This document shows positions 31,919 through 43,018 of a stretch of DNA of 64,000 nt, one piece after another. This DNA comes from a phage, in sequence record PX880103.1; one strand, written 5' to 3'. The first letter of the stretch is position 1; each line of letters begins with the position of its first letter. The position numbers were made by a program, and so were the translations under genes. Below the pieces are notes generated by a model that was not told where the DNA came from, did no database searches, and was given only the letters and a program-made list of their open reading frames with translations.

Positions 31919-32248
31919 TCAATTAGAAAATAAATTTATCCAAGATTGTTCTTTAATTAAAAATGGCTCAGAATCATATGCCATTAAACTTTGGGTGATT
32001 AGTCCTTTAAAAGGCCCATCAATAAATTCCATGGTAAAATATGGAATTTTATTCATTAACTTTGCATTAGGAGCAGTACACAAAACTCTACATCCTTTGA
32101 ATACACCTTTTTGTAATTTGTATTGCTTAGGATAAAATTCGCTCAAGACGTTGTTATTTGCCAAAATTTCAAAATGATTCACCAATTTATTTTTAATAGT
32201 TTTTGGCGAAAAATAAAGATATTCGAAAAGTTGTGTGTCTGTCATCAT
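31919..32248 (-). CDS. hypothetical protein
   Basis: 109 aa ORF. Confidence 0.4.
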   Translation of the reverse strand: MMTDTQLFEYLYFSPKTIKNKLVNHFEILANNNVLSEFYPKQYKLQKGVFKGCRVLCTAPNAKLMNKIPYFTMEFIDGPFKGLITQSLMAYDSEPFLIKEQSWINLFSN

Positions 32249-32832
32249 TGCATTCCAATTACGAAAAACTGTGGACGAGTAATACCATCAATGCAACATT
32301 TACTGTTGCAGCAGTGTTGTACAGTTTCAATATGAATATCGTAAATTTTATCCATATCAGGAGATTTAACAGGCTCATCGATTATATACAAAATCCGCGA
32401 AAGCGATAAACCTCTGAACTTGCTACCTCTATTACCAACAAAACTACGGACAGAATCAGTAAATAAACGGAATCGAATATCATCGCTAGAATAACGAGAA
32501 AATTCTTTTTTAATGTTGCCAGCAGAAATTTTAGCATAAGCTGAAGTATTAGAAAGAACAATAACTGTTCCGCCGTCATACAGCCAATTAGCAGCGAAGT
32601 TAGTCACAGCAGTTGATTTACCAGATTGACGTCCACCATCTAGTCGAAGTGTGCAATACTGCTTAAGTAAGTCTTCAAATGGCGGGATATAATCATTTTT
32701 ACAAATTTCTTCTACTCTAGCATCAGAATGGTGTGTAAAAGCATTCATCAGGGATAGATAAGGACCAGTTAAAAATGTTCTCATTTTGTTCTCTCTAAAT
32801 TTGGGCCATTCCGTGGCGCATGAATTGTCCAT
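32245..32832 (-). CDS. small P-loop NTPase
   Basis: Walker A GGRQSGKST, Walker B-like ILYIIDE; start uncertain (internal ATG MRTFLTG possible). Confidence 0.45.
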   Translation of the reverse strand: MDNSCATEWPKFRENKMRTFLTGPYLSLMNAFTHHSDARVEEICKNDYIPPFEDLLKQYCTLRLDGGRQSGKSTAVTNFAANWLYDGGTVIVLSNTSAYAKISAGNIKKEFSRYSSDDIRFRLFTDSVRSFVGNRGSKFRGLSLSRILYIIDEPVKSPDMDKIYDIHIETVQHCCNSKCCIDGITRPQFFVIGMQ

Positions 32833-33017
32833 TTCTGTATTTACCCATTACCGCACTTGGGCTCGACCTTATTACAGGTTGGCGGGAATCCCTCACAGAA
32901 TCATGAGGTCCAGCTTGTTCCCATGTTATTTGAATGTAAATATTTTTGCCTTAATACTTATACCAGTGTGGCTTCATTAAAATTTTTTCATCGAGTCATT
33001 TTACCTCTCCAAGTAAT

Positions 33018-33053
33018 TATGAATATACTATCACAATTTTAGGAGAAAGTAAA
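33018..33053 (-). promoter_or_regulatory. T4-type early promoter candidate
   Basis: Minus strand GTTTAC-N18-TAGTATAT; near-identical copy at 34362-34397. Confidence 0.4.
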
Positions 33054-33056
33054 CTG

Positions 33057-33359
33057 TTATTTACCTTTAATTACTTTAGCTGCTTCGATAGCCGCTTGCT
33101 GAAGGTCATCCATAGACATACCGAATTTAGAAGCAAAGTTATCAATTTTCTTTTCGACAGCATTCAAAGGCTTGGCCTGTTTACCTTCATTAGCGCCAGG
33201 AAGAGCGAGAATACGCTCTTTGTCAATATAAAGGCTTACAAGTTTCTTACGGTCTTTATCGGACAAATCATGAAATGAATGGGCCTTTTTATTTATAGCG
33301 GCTTCTAATTTACCTGCACTCACTCGCGCTTCAGTAATAAATTCTTGATATGTTTTCAT
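33057..33359 (-). CDS. ipII: internal protein II-like (capsid-targeted)
   Basis: 100 aa, N-terminal capsid targeting sequence MKTYQEFITE with ITE protease site. Confidence 0.6.
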   Translation of the reverse strand: MKTYQEFITEARVSAGKLEAAINKKAHSFHDLSDKDRKKLVSLYIDKERILALPGANEGKQAKPLNAVEKKIDNFASKFGMSMDDLQQAAIEAAKVIKGK

Positions 33360-33400
33360 ATGTTTCCTTTAAATGTAAATAGGCCTAAGTATCGGCCTTA

Positions 33401-33979
33401 TTAATTACCACGGGCTGCATTAGCAACGGCATAAGCGTACTGAACATTAGCGTCCTTAAACGTACCTTTAGAGGTATCTATTTCTGCCTTAAAGCCGCCT
33501 TTAGCCATAACATCGGCAAATTCTTTACGGAAAGCCATTGCATCAAGACCTTTCCATGATGATTTGTGCTTGGCGAATTCAAGACCAGCGTAGTTGACAG
33601 CCTTAGCTAATTTATTATCAATGACCCATTTACCGGCTTTAGGCACAAACTTCGGACCTTTTTGTTTAGAGAACAGTTTTAAATTCCAGCGACGAAGATC
33701 ACTGTCGGCTTTAACAAAAGCTGCGTCTAAGTTACTAGCAACAACATCTTCAATATGAGCAAATTTAAGTCCGTCAACTTCAATATTTAAATCGGTACGC
33801 CAGCGAAGTCCTTCCCAAGCGAAAGCTTTAAAATCGGAAGCTTTTGTAGCTAAGTATCGTTCAATAGGGGCTGTTTTAGGGTCAAAGCCGTTTCCACCAC
33901 GATAGTTCCACTCATCTTTATTAATGCCTTTGGCCTTTACTACAGAAGCTTCAGCGATAAATTCTTTATACGTTTTCAT
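33401..33979 (-). CDS. ipIII: internal protein III-like (capsid-targeted)
   Basis: 192 aa, N-terminal MKTYKEFIAE CTS. Confidence 0.6.
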   Translation of the reverse strand: MKTYKEFIAEASVVKAKGINKDEWNYRGGNGFDPKTAPIERYLATKASDFKAFAWEGLRWRTDLNIEVDGLKFAHIEDVVASNLDAAFVKADSDLRRWNLKLFSKQKGPKFVPKAGKWVIDNKLAKAVNYAGLEFAKHKSSWKGLDAMAFRKEFADVMAKGGFKAEIDTSKGTFKDANVQYAYAVANAARGN

Positions 33980-33995
33980 GTGTTTCCTTTAATTT

Positions 33996-34313
33996 TTATT
34001 CTTTAGGGAAGTTTTTAGAATATGCATCATAAAGCTTATTTCCAATACGGCGGAAAACTCTAGCCGCAAAACGATTTTCTGGGTTTTTAATCATGATTTG
34101 CATCATATAAGTACCCGCGTCAGAAAGAGCTTCTTCATAGTACCCGTTAATTTCTTTAAGAGTCCTACGTTTACCACCAGGACCATCAACAGTGATTTTC
34201 CATTTACCCGTAGAAGTGCGACTTGGCGGCTCAACTTGTTCAATCCAGATATAACCGCCTTCTACACGTTGTCCTGCAGCAGATTCTGCAATAAATTCTT
34301 GATATGTTTTCAT
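33996..34313 (-). CDS. additional CTS-bearing internal-protein candidate
   Basis: 105 aa, N-terminal MKTYQEFIAE CTS; lies between e and ipIII. Confidence 0.5.
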   Translation of the reverse strand: MKTYQEFIAESAAGQRVEGGYIWIEQVEPPSRTSTGKWKITVDGPGGKRRTLKEINGYYEEALSDAGTYMMQIMIKNPENRFAARVFRRIGNKLYDAYSKNFPKE

Positions 34314-34361
34314 GTGTTTCCTTTAAATATTTTAATTAGTAATTTATCTATTCAAGTAACT

Positions 34362-34397
34362 GTGAATATACTATCACAATTCCAAGAGAAAGTAAAC
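34362..34397 (-). promoter_or_regulatory. T4-type early promoter candidate
   Basis: Minus strand GCTGTTTACTTTCTCTTGGAATTGTGATAGTATATTCAC. Confidence 0.4.
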
Positions 34398-34401
34398 AGC
34401 T

Positions 34402-35370
<969 letters not shown>

Positions 35371-37944: not shown

Positions 37945-38100
37945 AGTTTTGTGAAAAATTTTTAGGGAATTCTAGGGGCAGGGAGGGGCAATTAAAAGAT
38001 AGGATAATATATTATAAAGGGTATAAACTAAATGATGCCTAGAGAGGTCTGGAAAGGCCTAGATACCAAAAATCCCTATCATTTAGATAGGGATTTAAAA

Positions 38101-38664
38101 TTATTTACCTAGTTTAGTTATTATAGCTTCGGCAGCAGCTTTTAGCTTAGATGCAGTGTTAATACGATTTTTAATTTCAGTATAAGCATCGCCAAGAACA
38201 TCAAGGCTATCAGAATAAACACTTACACTATTGCGTTCGCTATTTGAAATAGAACCTTTAGTTTTACGATCAAAATCAGTGTACACATCTTGAAGATCGC
38301 GGGCTGCCTTCTTTGCATCATCTAACGCATCAAGAGCTTTATTCAAAGCATTGACATATTTTTTAGTATCAAACATATTCTTAGAAATTTTGACAGGTGC
38401 GCGTTCAGGAGTAGCTAAGGCAGATTTAGGAACCTGAGCGCCTGATGCTAATTTCTTAGAAATTTTGAAAAATGCTTTATTGAATTTATTTTCTTGACTC
38501 ATCGTAAAAGAACTATTATCAATGTTATACATTTCAATAGCTTTAGCTTTCCACTTAAGAAAATCGCCACGGTCTTTTGGGTCCAATTGGAAGAATACTT
38601 TAGTAAGATCTGCTTCAGATGGTAATTTTGCTGCTTCGGTTAAAAATTCGGCATAGGTTTTCAT
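38101..38664 (-). CDS. CTS-bearing protein (e.8-like), possible internal protein
   Basis: 187 aa, N-terminus MKTYAEFLTEAAKL resembles capsid targeting sequence. Confidence 0.45.
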   Translation of the reverse strand: MKTYAEFLTEAAKLPSEADLTKVFFQLDPKDRGDFLKWKAKAIEMYNIDNSSFTMSQENKFNKAFFKISKKLASGAQVPKSALATPERAPVKISKNMFDTKKYVNALNKALDALDDAKKAARDLQDVYTDFDRKTKGSISNSERNSVSVYSDSLDVLGDAYTEIKNRINTASKLKAAAEAIITKLGK

Positions 38665-38751: not shown

Positions 38752-38780
38752 ACTAAAAAGCCCCAACCTTTCGGTCGGGG
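38752..38780 (-). terminator. rho-independent terminator downstream of tRNA region
   Basis: Minus strand CCCCGACC-GAAA-GGTTGGGG followed by CTTTTTAGTTT. Confidence 0.55.
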
Positions 38781-39098
38781 CTAAGCCTTGCGGCAACCTT
38801 GTCGGGGTTCCACCTGCTAAGGCAAGTGTTTGTACGAAACGCCGGGATTCGAACCCGGTTATTAAGCAGTTGACGCTACTCAATATTTTTAAAAGGCCAT
38901 ATCTCGACCATATCCGAACGTTCCGTCAAAAACGCTACTCGGCTTACGGCAAAGATATTTCCTCGAATCGATAATTCTGTGCGCCGTTTCTGCTGTGATG
39001 TAAGGGGACATTAACAGATCGTAAAGATTTGATAATGTCAGTCCTTACTCAGGGAACATCAGTCCGACGACTTACCGGTAGCGACCCGGTTTCTTGTT

Positions 39099-39174
39099 TG
39101 GTCGAGGCAGTAGGGATCGAACCTACGACCTAGGACTTAGAAGGTCCTTGCTCTTCCTTCTGAGCTATGCCTCG
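39099..39174 (-). tRNA. tRNA-Arg: tRNA-Arg (anticodon TCT)
   Basis: Hand-folded cloverleaf: acceptor CGAGGCA/TGCCTCG, anticodon loop CTTCTAA, T-arm GTAGG-TTCGATC-CCTAC, encoded CCA. Confidence 0.8.
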
Positions 39175-39178
39175 GATT

Positions 39179-39252
39179 TGGCGGACGTGATAGGATTCGA
39201 ACCTATAACCAATCGCTTAACAGGCGATCGCTCTGCCATTGAGCTACACATC
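39179..39252 (-). tRNA. tRNA-Asn: tRNA-Asn (anticodon GTT)
   Basis: Hand-folded: acceptor GGATGTG/CACGTCC, anticodon stem ATCGC/GCGAT with loop CTGTTAA, T-loop TTCGAAT, encoded CCA. Confidence 0.7.
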
Positions 39253-39257
39253 CAAAT

Positions 39258-39344
39258 TGGTGGGGAGTGATGGAGTCGAACCACCCGAGTCGCAATGACA
39301 ATGGATTTACAGTCCACACCGCTACCTCTACGGGATAACTCCCC
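39258..39344 (-). tRNA. tRNA-Tyr: tRNA-Tyr (anticodon GTA), long variable arm
   Basis: Hand-folded: acceptor GGGGAGT/ACTCCCC, anticodon loop CTGTAAA, long variable arm, T-loop TTCGACT, encoded CCA. Confidence 0.65.
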
Positions 39345-39353
39345 AAATTAATT

Positions 39354-39428
39354 TGGTGGCCCTGGGTGGAATTGAACCACCATCTGGCGATTATGAGTCG
39401 CTTGCTTGAACCTTCCAGCTACAGGGCC
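39354..39428 (-). tRNA. tRNA-Met/Ile: tRNA with CAT anticodon (Met or lysidine-modified Ile)
   Basis: Hand-folded: acceptor GGCCCTG/CAGGGCC, anticodon loop CTCATAA, T-arm GGTGG-TTCAATT-CCACC, encoded CCA. Confidence 0.7.
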
Positions 39429-39436
39429 AAATTTTC

Positions 39437-39919
39437 TTATTTTATGTAATATTTATTTAAAAACTTTCTAGCTTGAGTATGGCTAACATTTATAGCGTTT
39501 GCATAATTTTTAATAAAACCTCGTTCATCCATATTAAAATTTTCTAATATTTTTAATCGTCTAGTTATCTCATCTTGACTTAAGGTACTTGCATTATTTT
39601 TAGAAATTTTTTCTAAGGACTGTGCCGAGTGTTTTCGACCATTAAAATTAAAATTTTTAGATTTTGGAGGAAATCTAGCATTTAATCTCGCATCTTTTGT
39701 ATTTTGATTATTAGTTGCGCAATATATGTTATTTAATGAATATGGTCCTTTATCGCCGAAACGGCACATGCAGTATTCATGACCCTTTCTTCCACGCTTA
39801 TCATAATTTCCCGTTGATTTCCACCAATGCAACCATTCATCAAAAGTTAAATTCCATTCAATGTTTCTACGTATAGCAGAATTCCGCTGAGAAATATATT
39901 TTGCATAATCTTCTTTCAT
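39437..39919 (-). CDS. endonuclease-like protein inside the tRNA cluster (degenerate HNH_3-like, with C-terminal DNA-binding-like region)
   Basis: 160 aa from ATG; segment GHEYCMCRFGDKGPYSLNNIYCATNNQN loosely resembles HNH_3 core (H..DGN..NN...NL..T..N); basic C-terminus. Confidence 0.4.
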   Translation of the reverse strand: MKEDYAKYISQRNSAIRRNIEWNLTFDEWLHWWKSTGNYDKRGRKGHEYCMCRFGDKGPYSLNNIYCATNNQNTKDARLNARFPPKSKNFNFNGRKHSAQSLEKISKNNASTLSQDEITRRLKILENFNMDERGFIKNYANAINVSHTQARKFLNKYYIK

Positions 39920-39966
39920 CACAAATTTCTCTACTTATTCAATACACTGAGCTAAATCAGCAAAAC

Positions 39967-40056
39967 TGGCGGAGGCGATAGGATTTGAACCTATGAGTCG
40001 CCGGAGCGACTGCCGGTTTTCAAGACCGGTGCATTAAACCACTCTGCCACGCCTCC
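39967..40056 (-). tRNA. tRNA-Ser: tRNA-Ser (anticodon TGA), long variable arm
   Basis: Hand-folded: acceptor GGAGGCG/CGCCTCC, anticodon loop CTTGAAA, long variable arm, T-loop TTCAAAT, encoded CCA. Confidence 0.8.
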
Positions 40057-40058
40057 AG

Positions 40059-40132
40059 TCTCCGTGGCAGGATTTGAACCTACGACATTCTGCTCCCAAA
40101 GCAGACGCTCTACCAAACTGAGCTACACGGAG
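40059..40132 (-). tRNA. tRNA-Pro: tRNA-Pro (anticodon TGG)
   Basis: Hand-folded: acceptor CTCCGTG/CACGGAG, anticodon loop TTTGGGA, T-loop TTCAAAT; CCA not encoded; 2 nt from tRNA-Ser. Confidence 0.8.
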
Positions 40133-40142
40133 TAAATTAAAT

Positions 40143-40216
<74 letters not shown>

Positions 40217-40221
40217 AAATT

Positions 40222-40309
40222 TGGTGCGAGAAGTGGGACTCGAACCCACAAGGAAATCATTCCGCAGCATTTTAAGTGCTGTGCCTTTACCAATTTGACC
40301 ATTCTCGCG
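40222..40309 (-). tRNA. tRNA-Leu: tRNA-Leu (anticodon TAA), long variable arm
   Basis: Hand-folded: acceptor GCGAGAA/TTCTCGC, anticodon stem CAGCA/TGCTG loop CTTAAAA, long variable arm, T-arm GTGGG-TTCGAGT-CCCAC, encoded CCA. Confidence 0.8.
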
Positions 40310-40314
40310 CTATA

Positions 40315-40923
40315 TTATTTATTACGTGAAAAAGACTGTTCTATCAATTCTGGACACTTTCGTTCTATCCATTTTCTAGCTTTTTGTGGGCTTATACCTA
40401 TTATTTTAGCAGCTTTACTAACCCATCCAAATTTAGAATAATCGATTTTAACTAATTCTTCGTAAATTTCATCAGTTAAAATCTTTTCATTAATATTTAC
40501 CAGTAAATGATATAATTTATTATCATTAGCAATTTTAATGAATCTTTTATAGTTTCCGCCTTTACTTAAACCTAATGAAGTAATTGCAGATGATATAGTA
40601 GCCGAATTTAATAGCGCGTTTAAAATTTCTTCATCACTAACATTATAACGCTTTTTATTATTTTTAATATTTTTACCAGCAAAAGTATCAGTTTGCGAAT
40701 GGCAGTTTGGACATAATAATCTTAAATTAGATTTAAGATGATTTTTGTTATTTCCATCAATATGGTCTAATTGCAGAACAATATGCTTATTTTGCCATTT
40801 TGAAATTTTACAAATTGCACACTCATATGGAAAAATATTTTCTTTTATTATTTTGTCTTTCAGCTTTCCTGTACTAAAATTTGGATGTTTTCCTTCAAAA
40901 ATTTCAGCTAATTTAGTATCCAT
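40315..40923 (-). CDS. free-standing HNH homing endonuclease
   Basis: HNH motif CAICKISKWQNKHIVLQLDHIDGNNKNHLKSNLRLLCPNCHSQTD; ends 6 nt from tRNA-Leu; ATG start at 40923 (track start is TTG). Confidence 0.75.
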   Translation of the reverse strand: MDTKLAEIFEGKHPNFSTGKLKDKIIKENIFPYECAICKISKWQNKHIVLQLDHIDGNNKNHLKSNLRLLCPNCHSQTDTFAGKNIKNNKKRYNVSDEEILNALLNSATISSAITSLGLSKGGNYKRFIKIANDNKLYHLLVNINEKILTDEIYEELVKIDYSKFGWVSKAAKIIGISPQKARKWIERKCPELIEQSFSRNK

Positions 40924-41033
40924 AATATAATTCCCAATTATTAACAAAGGCTCTCAAACAAGAACCCTTGATGATAGAGGGTATTAATCAGTGCGGTATG
41001 AGTTAATAATAACAAATAATTCTTAAAGCATAT

Positions 41034-41920: not shown

Positions 41921-41942
41921 TTTATTCTCCTCAGTAGTTGAT

Positions 41943-41977
41943 AGGGTAATAGTATCACAACTAAAACCCTATGTAAA
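41943..41977 (-). promoter_or_regulatory. T4-type early promoter candidate
   Basis: Minus strand TTTCACAAAGTTGTTTAC ... GTGATACTATTACCC. Confidence 0.45.
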
Positions 41978-41990
41978 CAACTTTGTGAAA

Positions 41991-42248
41991 TTATTTTAAA
42001 TCTTCTAATCGTTTCTTCATCTTAGAACCGTTCTTAGCGATTTCGCCTGCATCAGAGCATAATGCTAAAAGTGCTTTAACTTTAGTTTGGTCTCCTTTAA
42101 AAGATGAAGGATCAACAGCAGCAGCAAGTTCTTTAATACGAGAGAAAAGACGCTCAGCTTCAGCTAAAGCCATTCCAAGCTTTACTTCCATACCGTGGGA
42201 AGATTCAGTGATAGTAGTTTTTGTAGCAAACTCTTTGAAAGTTTTCAT
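41991..42248 (-). CDS. CTS-bearing small protein at ipI position (internal protein candidate)
   Basis: 85 aa, N-terminus MKTFKEFATKTTITE resembles CTS with ITE cleavage site; adjacent to 57B as ipI is in T4; early promoter upstream. Confidence 0.45.
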   Translation of the reverse strand: MKTFKEFATKTTITESSHGMEVKLGMALAEAERLFSRIKELAAAVDPSSFKGDQTKVKALLALCSDAGEIAKNGSKMKKRLEDLK

Positions 42249-42274
42249 TTTTATTTTCCTAATTAATTCTGATG

Positions 42275-42309
42275 AGATAATAGTATCACTACCTCATCAG
42301 TATGTAAAC
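42275..42309 (-). promoter_or_regulatory. T4-type early promoter candidate upstream of ipI-locus gene
   Basis: Minus strand TTTCACAAAGTTGTTTAC ... GTGATACTATTATC. Confidence 0.45.
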
Positions 42310-42321
42310 AACTTTGTGAAA

Positions 42322-43018
<697 letters not shown>

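Follow-up and report, generated by a model that had tools for sequence, protein, structure and literature searches.

The lysozyme-proximal internal protein locus of a T4-like phage: ip10, ipIII and ipII cassettes behind a common leader block

The stretch analyzed here, which we refer to as the window, comprises 64,000 nt of phage DNA (record PX880103.1). The upstream anchor of the locus is the lysozyme gene e (34402-34896, minus strand), whose product is identical to T4 e at 157 of 164 residues; the same position is annotated as e in both T4 and PP01. Directly downstream, all on the minus strand, lie three genes coding for small precursors: ip10 (33996-34313; 105 aa, starting MKTYQEFIAE), ipIII (33401-33979; 192 aa, starting MKTYKEFIAE) and ipII (33057-33359; 100 aa, starting MKTYQEFITE). 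The first-pass annotation had matched the 192-aa and 100-aa products to T4 IpIII and IpII, and both assignments are borne out. IpIII is identical to its T4 counterpart at 182 of 193 positions (94.3%; phrog_5341, E = 1.8e-117) and IpII at 93 of 100 (93.0%; phrog_7857, E = 4.5e-55), both PHROG matches being labeled 'internal virion protein'. GenBank X04567 treats the T4 proteins as precursors from which residues -10 to -1 are removed, IpIII running from -10 to 183. The predicted mature forms in the window are a 182-aa IpIII (20.2 kDa, pI 9.65) and a 90-aa IpII (9.8 kDa, pI 9.66). The two genes thus have the same position, the same order and the same 10-residue leader as in T4, but the window copies carry 11 (IpIII) and 7 (IpII) substitutions. 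A weak terminator-like hairpin with a 5-bp stem (33381-33398, minus strand) lies between them. The region after ipII also differs: the full denV gene, which sits between ipII and vs.8 in T4, is reduced in the window to a relic of its last ~20 codons (32936-32995, minus strand; tblastn against T4 DenV residues 118-137, 70% identity).

The 105-aa product is 100% identical to the PP01 'Ip10 internal head protein' (phrog_3966, E = 2.7e-34). At 90% identity it clusters with 'Ip10 [Enterobacteria phage Pol]' (CAA84455.1), and it is annotated as ip10 in PP01, VR25 and SP18; the window ORF is the same protein as Ip10 of these phages. This ORF had been singled out at first as extra relative to T4. T4 does lack a third gene here, but the ORF is a named protein and hence not an unexpected one. 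The name Ip10 dates from 1994, when it was given in phage Pol. Because Ip10 was named long ago and an anti-defence role of internal proteins (IPs) is established, the three-gene finding itself is already known: ip10, ipIII and ipII are described T-even internal proteins.

The presence of Ip10 varies among close relatives, as is typical of a non-essential accessory gene: it is absent from T4, RB32, fD1 and Bas37 and present in PP01, W143 and Bas45. Its leader, MKTYQEFIAE, is identical to the T4 IpII/IpIII leaders, with the (I/L)xE site formed by I8-A9-E10, and the predicted mature protein starts at Ser11 (SAAGQR...; 95 aa, 10.8 kDa, pI 9.6). A small ORF that has no Pfam family and is labeled 'hypothetical protein' in many records might be dismissed as a chance ORF or as the remains of a gene that has lost its function. 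We consider this hardly credible, since the ORF is intact in 190 phage records (with at least 95% identity in 132), shares its ribosome-binding site (RBS) with ipII and ipIII, and has been named by specialists. Moreover, divergent homologs (50-72% identity) in phages of other host genera, namely Enterobacter, Klebsiella and Cronobacter, keep both the ORF and the leader and retain 27 invariant positions.

The 5' ends of the three genes form a three-copy family of 58-nt repeats (76-84% identical in a repeat search) on the minus strand, consisting of RBS and leader-coding DNA. The copies span 34274-34331 (ip10), 33940-33997 (ipIII) and 33320-33377 (ipII), and in the first, collinearity with the region between e and ipIII of T4 extends ~40 nt into the coding sequence. 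All three ORFs are preceded by TTAAAGGAAACA(C/T)ATG, which on the plus strand reads ...TGTTTCCTTTAA, and the 21-nt pattern TTAAAGGAAACAYATGAAAAC occurs three times in the window compared with 0.00 occurrences expected from 100 shuffles. When all six frames of the 64 kb were scanned for starts of the type M[KR][TS][YFW].[ED][FLY], only five ORFs were found: ip10, ipIII, ipII, a 187-aa ORF at 38101-38664 (MKTYAEFLTE) and an 85-aa ORF at 41991-42248 (MKTFKEFATKTTITE). Earlier statements that the three tandem ORFs begin with the T4 capsid targeting sequence and its (I/L)xE site, that they have their upstream nucleotides and ribosome-binding region in common, and that the latter two ORFs carry similar N-termini are all upheld by these data; in the tandem ORFs the site lies at residues 8-10, and one of the two further ORFs turned out to be the known Ip5. 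The motif (I/L)xE is the established cleavage site of the T4 head protease gp21. Beyond residue 10 we detected no similarity among the five proteins (local alignment scores 22-34); therefore, the leader alone is common to them. The same partitioning is seen more widely, as 69 distinct leader-bearing proteins from 21 sources fall into 16 unrelated cargo families. All 69 have M1, K2 and F7, and 64 of them have E10.

Comparison with other phages revealed a composite structure. In the compared segment of the window, counted from its own first nucleotide, 1-515 matches PP01 at 97.3%, 471-1471 matches T4 at 92%, and the overlap (471-515) lies inside the leader block at the start of ipIII, the PP01 match ending ~32 nt into this second gene. 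Judged by these matches, the locus is a mosaic, in which PP01-type e-ip10 is joined to T4-type ipIII-ipII within a ~45-nt stretch of RBS and leader. The ip10-ipIII junction is present in 16 phage records. The content of the locus differs from phage to phage: T4 has e-ipIII-ipII; PP01 and RB32 have e-(ip10)-ip4, ip10 itself being absent from RB32; W143 has e-93aa-denV-86aa-ip10-ipIII-ipII, that is, five genes between e and vs.8 besides denV; and Bas37 has e-denV with no IP gene. Thus Ip10 of the window, although the same protein, differs in its neighborhood from that of PP01 and RB32-type genomes, where ip4 comes next instead of ipIII-ipII. Observed directly here are the identities of the genes, the leader block that they have in common, the mosaic junction and the variation in gene content. 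These observations also bear on the origin of the three genes. Being adjacent, in the same orientation and near-identical at their 5' ends, ip10, ipIII and ipII might be tandem paralogs that arose by local duplication and divergence. However, such paralogs would not be expected to lose all similarity past residue 10, to occur singly or in other combinations elsewhere among phages, or to be joined at a PP01-type/T4-type junction within the leader block. We regard local duplication as very unlikely and favor independently acquired cassettes.

The whole ip cluster is flanked by 69-nt direct repeats, the upstream copy at 34343-34411 being 80% identical to the downstream copy at 33000-33068; ip10 therefore has both the e-proximal position and the repeat flank in addition to the leader block. 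Within the upstream repeat, GTTTAC...TAGTAT is similar to an early promoter and was not called on that strand by the promoter scan. Elements based on early promoters have been described at IP loci as PeSL-like (Arbiol 2010). The cassettes of RB49/phi1 are bounded by such repeated promoter/stem-loop recombination elements (PeSLs), and their counterparts in the window are the 69-nt and 68-nt flanking repeats together with hairpin repeats at a slot near e.8 discussed below. There are two differences: Arbiol et al. (2010) call the T-even elements analogs and not homologs, and the e-proximal crossover of the window is located in the leader-coding block and not in a promoter element. As for late transcription, two exact T4 late-promoter motifs TATAAATA were found upstream of e (34910-34917 and 34923-34930, minus strand). 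A motif scan found no exact TATAAATA directly upstream of ip10, and the search for terminator-like sites gave no call in the e-ip10 interval. Since ip10 has no exact late promoter of its own, its late expression would have to come from the two motifs upstream of e, which presumably also drive late ip10-ipIII-ipII transcription.

Taken together, we are highly confident that positions 33057-34313 represent, in a T4-like phage of the genus Tequatrovirus, the polymorphic IP locus next to e, with ip10, ipIII and ipII as cassettes, and that the locus works along the following lines. The first 10 residues of each precursor (MKTY.EFI.E) would act as a capsid targeting sequence (CTS) that brings the precursor into the prohead's scaffolding core, and the prohead protease gp21 would cut after Glu10 at (I/L)xE. 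The basic mature protein would stay amid the packaged DNA, be ejected into the cell along with it, and disable a first-line, modification-dependent defence. Homologous recombination in the 45-58 nt of RBS and leader and in the 69-nt flanking repeats would swap unrelated cargo between phages. In this scheme packaging, processing, injection and the targets of Ip1-3 are taken from the literature. A head holds ~1000 IP molecules, and a CTS is all that a foreign protein requires for encapsidation (PMC3012670). On ECOR17 the phage requires IpIII, which is active without the CTS when made in the host cell (PMC9391042). Ip1, Ip2 and Ip3 were reported in 2025 to inhibit each a different GmrSD type IV restriction enzyme, with T4 IpII acting on GmrSD(ECOR21) and T4 IpIII on GmrSD(ECOR17), while ip4-10 gave no reproducible inhibition against 15 GmrSD groups (PMC12373910; Silas et al., Supplementary Fig. 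9). The CTS protein Bas37_0260 inhibits a different enzyme, McrBC (bioRxiv 10.1101/2025.11.20.689424).

By orthology, IpII of the window should block a GmrSD enzyme such as that of ECOR21, and IpIII one such as that of ECOR17. Because they differ from the T4 proteins at 6-7% of residues and the specificity of the inhibitors is reportedly narrow, their targets may nevertheless differ. For Ip10 we infer an anti-defence function as well. In view of the GmrSD screen, a GmrSD enzyme is only a possible target of Ip10; most likely the protein acts on another type IV or DNA-entry defence. The suggestion in the first-pass annotation that the extra members are candidate injected anti-defence effectors agrees with the accepted view of Ip1-3 as GmrSD inhibitors; yet it is not new, and ip4-10 had no reproducible effect in the GmrSD screen. 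That screen result could also mean that Ip10, and IPs generally, are mainly basic counter-ions or packing proteins for condensed DNA, with Ip10 having no specific host target. All five predicted mature leader-bearing proteins of the window are indeed basic (pI 8.8-9.7), and within the head the phosphates of the DNA are in contact with IP lysines (PMC3012670). However, every IP with an assigned function (Ip1, Ip2, Ip3 and Bas37_0260) is a specific inhibitor of type IV restriction, and Bas37 does without any gene in the e-proximal slot. In addition, the cargo families are unrelated and are freely gained and lost, which is the pattern of an arms race and not that of a generic structural role. A mainly structural function thus seems unlikely, and we prefer to view Ip10 as an injected effector. 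The locus illustrates in textbook fashion how cassettes of injected anti-restriction proteins are shuffled. Ip10 and, from the other IP locus, Ip5 stand as orphan effectors so far screened against GmrSD enzymes only; with Bas37_0260 known to inhibit McrBC, further type IV systems are worth trying for both.

Searches of Pfam, NCBIfam and PDB sequences with all five leader proteins returned nothing significant, and matches to CsgH, filamin and cytochrome b562 (E = 0.005-0.4) were discarded as sub-threshold noise. The AlphaFold2 model of Ip10, built from a 4-sequence alignment, is of moderate confidence (mean pLDDT 61.9; ~78 for the core, residues 20-76). A Foldseek search of this model against PDB gave no significant match (best E = 0.066) and no fold could be assigned, and the sole match in BFVD was the Ip10 homolog of Cronobacter phage Pet-CM3-4. 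T4 IPI*, the injected inhibitor of the GmrSD from E. coli CT596, resembles Ip10 in its small size and in the delivery predicted for Ip10, by way of a leader, gp21 processing and co-injection with DNA. In contrast, the two proteins show no sequence similarity, and the Ip10 model disclosed no resemblance. The IPI leader is also longer than that of Ip10 and is cleaved at a later ITE, as is probable for Ip5 too.

The ip5 gene (41991-42248, minus strand; 85 aa, phrog_3499 'internal head protein') occupies the 57B-proximal IP locus. Its product is 100% identical to Ip5 of RB15 (Z35082) and RB32 and is probably cleaved after the ITE at residue 15. The gene is flanked by 68-nt direct repeats (41939-42006 and 42270-42337) with a promoter-like TTTACA-17-TACTAT. 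We considered whether Ip5 might be the McrBC inhibitor Bas37_0260 and rejected this, as Ip5 corresponds to bas37_0261, while Bas37_0260 is a neighboring 77-aa gene absent from the window. This CTS protein of the HIDEN-SEQ preprint has the same leader and lies in the IP locus beside Ip5 in Bas37, and it indicates that IP targets extend beyond GmrSD, but as to the window only its leader matches. On CFT073, the Bas37 HIDEN-SEQ data show a depletion of insertions in Ip5 (bas37_0261; log2FC -2.09, with the adjusted p value given as 0.00000).

The fifth leader-bearing gene, orf187 (38101-38664, minus strand; 187 aa), lies between rnaC/tRNA-Arg and e.8, which is outside both classical IP loci. It starts with MKTYAEFLTE and has LTE at residues 8-10, and the leader is kept in 31-34% identical homologs (MKTYNEFLNE, MITFNEFLNE). 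The predicted mature protein starts at residue 11 (AAKLPSEADLTK; 177 aa, 19.6 kDa, pI 9.5). The gene is bounded by hairpins at 38759-38782 and 38070-38096. Upstream of it only AATAAATA and GATAAATT were found and no exact TATAAATA. More than 30 IP variants are reportedly known, a count said to come from Repoila (1994) and Comeau (2007). The accessible literature on T-even phages has two IP loci only, next to e and next to 57B, and IP genes are stated to be absent elsewhere (Arbiol 2010). As an internal-protein candidate, orf187 is new.

Two families occupy this e.8-proximal slot. The first, C1 (153-157 aa, RB32ORF133c type), is present in 512 phage records, and its predicted mature start is AVLNEASSTEIQAVAK (residue 11), or ASSTEIQ... 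after a second LNE. The second, C2, comprises orf187, present in 165 phage records, and its 204/205-aa relatives. Both have the leader MK[TS]Y.[EQ]FL.E and are basic and largely helical, and all the rows and source names listed for them, including those for orf187, read 'hypothetical', except for one evidently spurious label. When their profiles were compared, C1 and C2 matched across the C-terminal helices (76% probability, E = 2e-5), which hints at distant homology but is too little to merge the families. One apparent homolog of orf187, PP01_137, was rejected: although annotated as 187 aa, it belongs to the 157-aa family and has its start called too far upstream. The C1 gene RB32ORF133c has an exact TATAAATA upstream, and g140 of fD1, identical to its product at 154 of 157 positions, has been listed as particle-associated, in a proteome that covers 113 of the 277 gene products, dNMP kinase among them. 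The fPS-2/65/90 paper contains no proteome of virions.

The e.8-proximal slot is empty in T4 and holds one or two genes in 18 of the 18 other genomes and contigs examined. The window arrangement corresponds to the two-gene arrangement without its C1 cassette, and the slot may be remodeled by recombination between copies of a 34-nt terminator hairpin. On balance, we lean towards the view that T-even phages have a third, apparently unrecognized IP locus between the rnaC terminator hairpin and e.8, and that C1 and C2 proteins are packaged, cleaved behind residue 10 and injected in the manner of Ip1-10. That the slot is empty in T4 would explain why such a locus has been missed. If the slot does encode packaged proteins, the IP repertoire of most T4-like coliphages, therapeutic phages included, is larger than annotated, and two widespread families, a large added set of effector candidates, become directly testable as injected counter-defence factors, with the tractable phage Bas37 already having a transposon library.

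The model of orf187 consists of helices throughout, with residues 80-98 as a disordered linker, and its confidence (mean pLDDT 61) was too low for a fold search. Among 1.84 billion representative proteins, an exhaustive orf187 search yielded only one distant full-length relative (31% identity) and an unrelated repeat protein. In the Bas37 transposon library, the homolog of orf187 (bas37_0243, 185 of 187 residues identical) has insertions at 1 of 48 TA sites, while its neighbors tolerate insertions freely.

Directly downstream of lysozyme e (34402-34896, minus strand), three consecutive ORFs were found on the minus strand: ip10 (33996-34313, 105 aa), ipIII (33401-33979, 192 aa) and ipII (33057-33359, 100 aa). 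Their products begin with MKTYQEFIAE, MKTYKEFIAE and MKTYQEFITE, respectively, the capsid targeting sequence (leader) with its (I/L)xE site for the gp21 prohead protease. The tandem trio proposed in the first-pass annotation is thus real, with agreeing coordinates. The string TTAAAGGAAACA(C/T)ATG stands at each of the three starts, and the 5' ends share a 58-nt block (76-84% identity). The claim that the ribosome-binding region is shared is borne out by a 21-nt pattern, TTAAAGGAAACAYATGAAAAC, which occurs three times in the window and never in 100 shuffles. Scanning all 64 kb in six frames for M[KR][TS][YFW].[ED][FLY] at ORF starts, we recovered only five leader-bearing ORFs: these three, orf187 (38101-38664, minus strand, 187 aa) and ip5 (41991-42248, minus strand, 85 aa), the last two being the ORFs already noted for similar N-termini. 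Past residue 10, no relatedness was detected among the five proteins (local alignment scores 22-34).

The segment belongs to the Tequatrovirus (T4-like) group, and 785 phage records match the locus. IpIII and IpII, correctly named from the outset, are identical to their T4 counterparts at 182/193 and 93/100 positions; GenBank X04567 annotates these T4 proteins as precursors shedding residues -10 to -1. The 105-aa ORF is 100% identical to a PP01 gene annotated "ip10, Ip10 internal head protein", copies in VR25 and SP18 are also named ip10, and its 90%-identity cluster includes "Ip10 [Enterobacteria phage Pol]". The Pol entry, CAA84455.1, reportedly stems from a 1994 survey of T-even polymorphism. 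We assign the 105-aa protein to Ip10 and, given 100% identity to Ip5 of RB15 and RB32, the 85-aa protein to Ip5. Reading the tandem ORFs as internal proteins was therefore correct, and the gene described as one more than expected is extra with respect to T4 (ipIII-ipII-denV downstream of e) alone, since it is the already named Ip10. In short, the tandem-gene finding is real, yet already known. Ip10 was found in 190 phage records, with homologues of 50-72% identity in Enterobacter, Klebsiella and Cronobacter phages. Database labels within the family vary ('internal head protein III' in phage SH7, 'IpII internal head protein' in UniRef, hypothetical). RB69ORF124c (90 aa) aligns with the family in two separate tblastn segments, pointing to a frameshift or an error in the RB69 sequence.

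The arrangement of the window is that of a classical IP cassette locus. From the end of e to ~32 nt inside the second gene (ipIII) it matches PP01 at 97.3% identity; from the ipIII ribosome-binding site onwards it is of the T4 ipIII-ipII type (92%). By these matches the locus is a PP01-type/T4-type mosaic, and because the two overlap within a ~45-nt block covering the ribosome-binding site and leader-coding sequence, we place the crossover there. Up to the end of the leader, the e-ip10 intergenic region of the window lines up with the e-ipIII one of T4, so that ip10 behaves as a single inserted 334-nt unit. Direct repeats bracket both the whole ip10-ipIII-ipII cluster (69 nt, 34343-34411 and 33000-33068, 80% identical) and ip5 (68 nt, 42270-42337 and 41939-42006, 84% identical). 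The latter pair contains TTTACA-17-TACTAT, which resembles a promoter and has a TG upstream. Gene content downstream of e varies widely: ip10-ip4 in PP01, ip4 in RB32, 93aa-denV-86aa-ip10-ipIII-ipII in W143 and denV only in Bas37, next to the T4 order; the ip10-to-ipIII junction occurs in 16 records. The pattern is that of the cassette shuffling attributed to Repoila et al. (1994) and described again by Arbiol et al. Across 21 sources, we collected 69 distinct leader-bearing proteins, whose cargo falls into 16 unrelated families. All of them share M1, K2 and F7 of the leader, and 64/69 have E10. In some relatives, a 93-aa leader gene (MKTYSEFLSE) begins 2-3 nt past the e stop codon (L006:14102-14383, L008:13280-13561, L009:17719-18000). 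Its product is homologous (~48% identity) to Ip5, a protein otherwise encoded at the 57B-proximal locus, so one cargo family is present at both classical loci. The endonuclease V gene, denV, is deleted in the window except for a remnant of the final ~20 codons (32936-32995, minus strand), located between ipII and a vs.8 homologue (32245-32832).

In the T4 head, the leader steers internal proteins to the scaffolding core, ~1000 molecules of them sit within the packaged DNA, and the leader by itself suffices to encapsidate foreign proteins (PMC3012670). Here, gp21 would cut Ip10, IpIII, IpII and orf187 after (I/L)xE at residues 8-10, and Ip5 after ITE at residue 15; once processed, all five should be basic (pI 8.8-9.7). 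Late expression of the tandem genes is suggested by two exact copies of TATAAATA upstream of e. The idea of injected anti-defence effectors is the current consensus, established for the relatives. IpIII is required for T4 growth on ECOR17 and does not need its leader to act in the cytoplasm (PMC9391042), Ip1, Ip2 and Ip3 are inhibitors of one GmrSD type IV restriction enzyme each, without cross-protection (PMC12373910), and Bas37_0260, a further leader-bearing protein, inhibits McrBC (bioRxiv 10.1101/2025.11.20.689424). For Ip10 itself such a role would follow by analogy; a published screen of ip4-10, Ip10 included, against 15 GmrSD groups found no reproducible inhibition (PMC12373910). Of the homology and structure prediction proposed earlier for the 105-aa and 85-aa proteins, sequence homology named both. 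No Ip10 relatives were found in Pfam, NCBIfam or PDB, and a moderately confident model (mean pLDDT 61.9), with three strands and a helix at residues 21-76, had no significant structural neighbours at this modest confidence.

The remaining leader-bearing ORF, orf187 (MKTYAEFLTE), lies outside both classical IP loci, between the rnaC terminator hairpin/tRNA-Arg and e.8, where T4 has 285 nt without a gene. We surveyed this slot in the window, PP01, RB32, fD1, ten IMG/VR contigs and four BASEL phages. T4 aside, one or two leader-bearing ORFs occupy it in each genome surveyed (e.g. L003:5619-6092, L004:4943-5416, L022:7029-8191), and none of these genomes has any outside this slot and the two classical loci. 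The occupants form two families. C1 (153-157 aa, 512 phage records) includes RB32ORF133c, fD1 g140 and bas37_0244, with starts such as MKSYAQFLNE and MKTYNEFLTE. C2 (187 and 204/205 aa) comprises orf187, with 165 records, and relatives of 204/205 aa that are 31-34% identical to it and keep the leader (MKTYNEFLNE, MITFNEFLNE). In BLASTP, C1 and orf187 have only the first 11 residues in common; profile comparison (76% probability, E = 2e-5) hints at distant homology of their C-terminal helices. PP01_137 (L001:5479-6042), annotated as a 187-aa CDS, is actually a 157-aa C1 protein with its start called 90 nt too far upstream of the leader-type start (L001:5569).

At the nucleotide level, the slot is modular. 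The order is hairpin, TATAAATA, C1, hairpin in RB32, followed by orf187 and a second, different hairpin in L015 and Bas37; the window has the latter order minus the C1 unit, with the junction within a 34-nt hairpin repeat. All C1 and C2 annotations and source names seen read "hypothetical protein", bar one evidently spurious label, and the N-terminal strings of the two families do not occur in the literature searched, which did not cover Repoila 1994 and Comeau 2007. Arbiol et al. (2010) place IP genes at the two classical loci and nowhere else. The C1 protein fD1 g140 is listed among the particle-associated products of a virion proteome in which many non-structural proteins appear as well; it lends weak support to packaging of the slot proteins. 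We consider the chances of a third IP locus between rnaC/tRNA-Arg and e.8 slightly better than even.

In the tables of HIDEN-SEQ, a transposon-library study of Bas37 (MZ501089; bioRxiv 10.1101/2025.11.20.689424), bas37_0243 (L022:7029-7592; 185/187 identical to orf187) was hit at 1/48 TA sites and called "Essential", a call passed over in the text; e.8 (23/23), C1 (29/34), Bas37_0260 (15/15) and Ip5 (18/18) were non-essential. True essentiality would be odd for a gene missing from T4 and many relatives. According to the same authors, hoc, inh, wac, uvsW, segC and segE also look essential for unclear, possibly locus-dependent reasons, and the bas37_0243 call could be a similar artefact. We therefore treat it as a lead and not a result. 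Ip5 (bas37_0261), of which the window has an identical copy, showed a depletion of insertions on UPEC CFT073 relative to K-12 (log2FC -2.09, with the adjusted p given as 0.00000), which hints at a host-specific role; depletion in e.6 (bas37_0240) was far stronger (log2FC -6.49).

The tRNA cluster of the window (39099-40308) encodes Arg, Asn, Tyr, Met/Ile-CAU, Ser, Pro, Gly and Leu tRNAs, a set unlike that of T4. A 161-aa ORF (39437-39922, minus strand) lies within it and a 210-aa ORF (40315-40947, minus strand) just past tRNA-Leu. Neither has a Pfam match at E <= 0.001; by eye, the 210-aa product contains an HNH-like motif (DHIDGNNKNH...CPNCH), and both are likely homing endonucleases.
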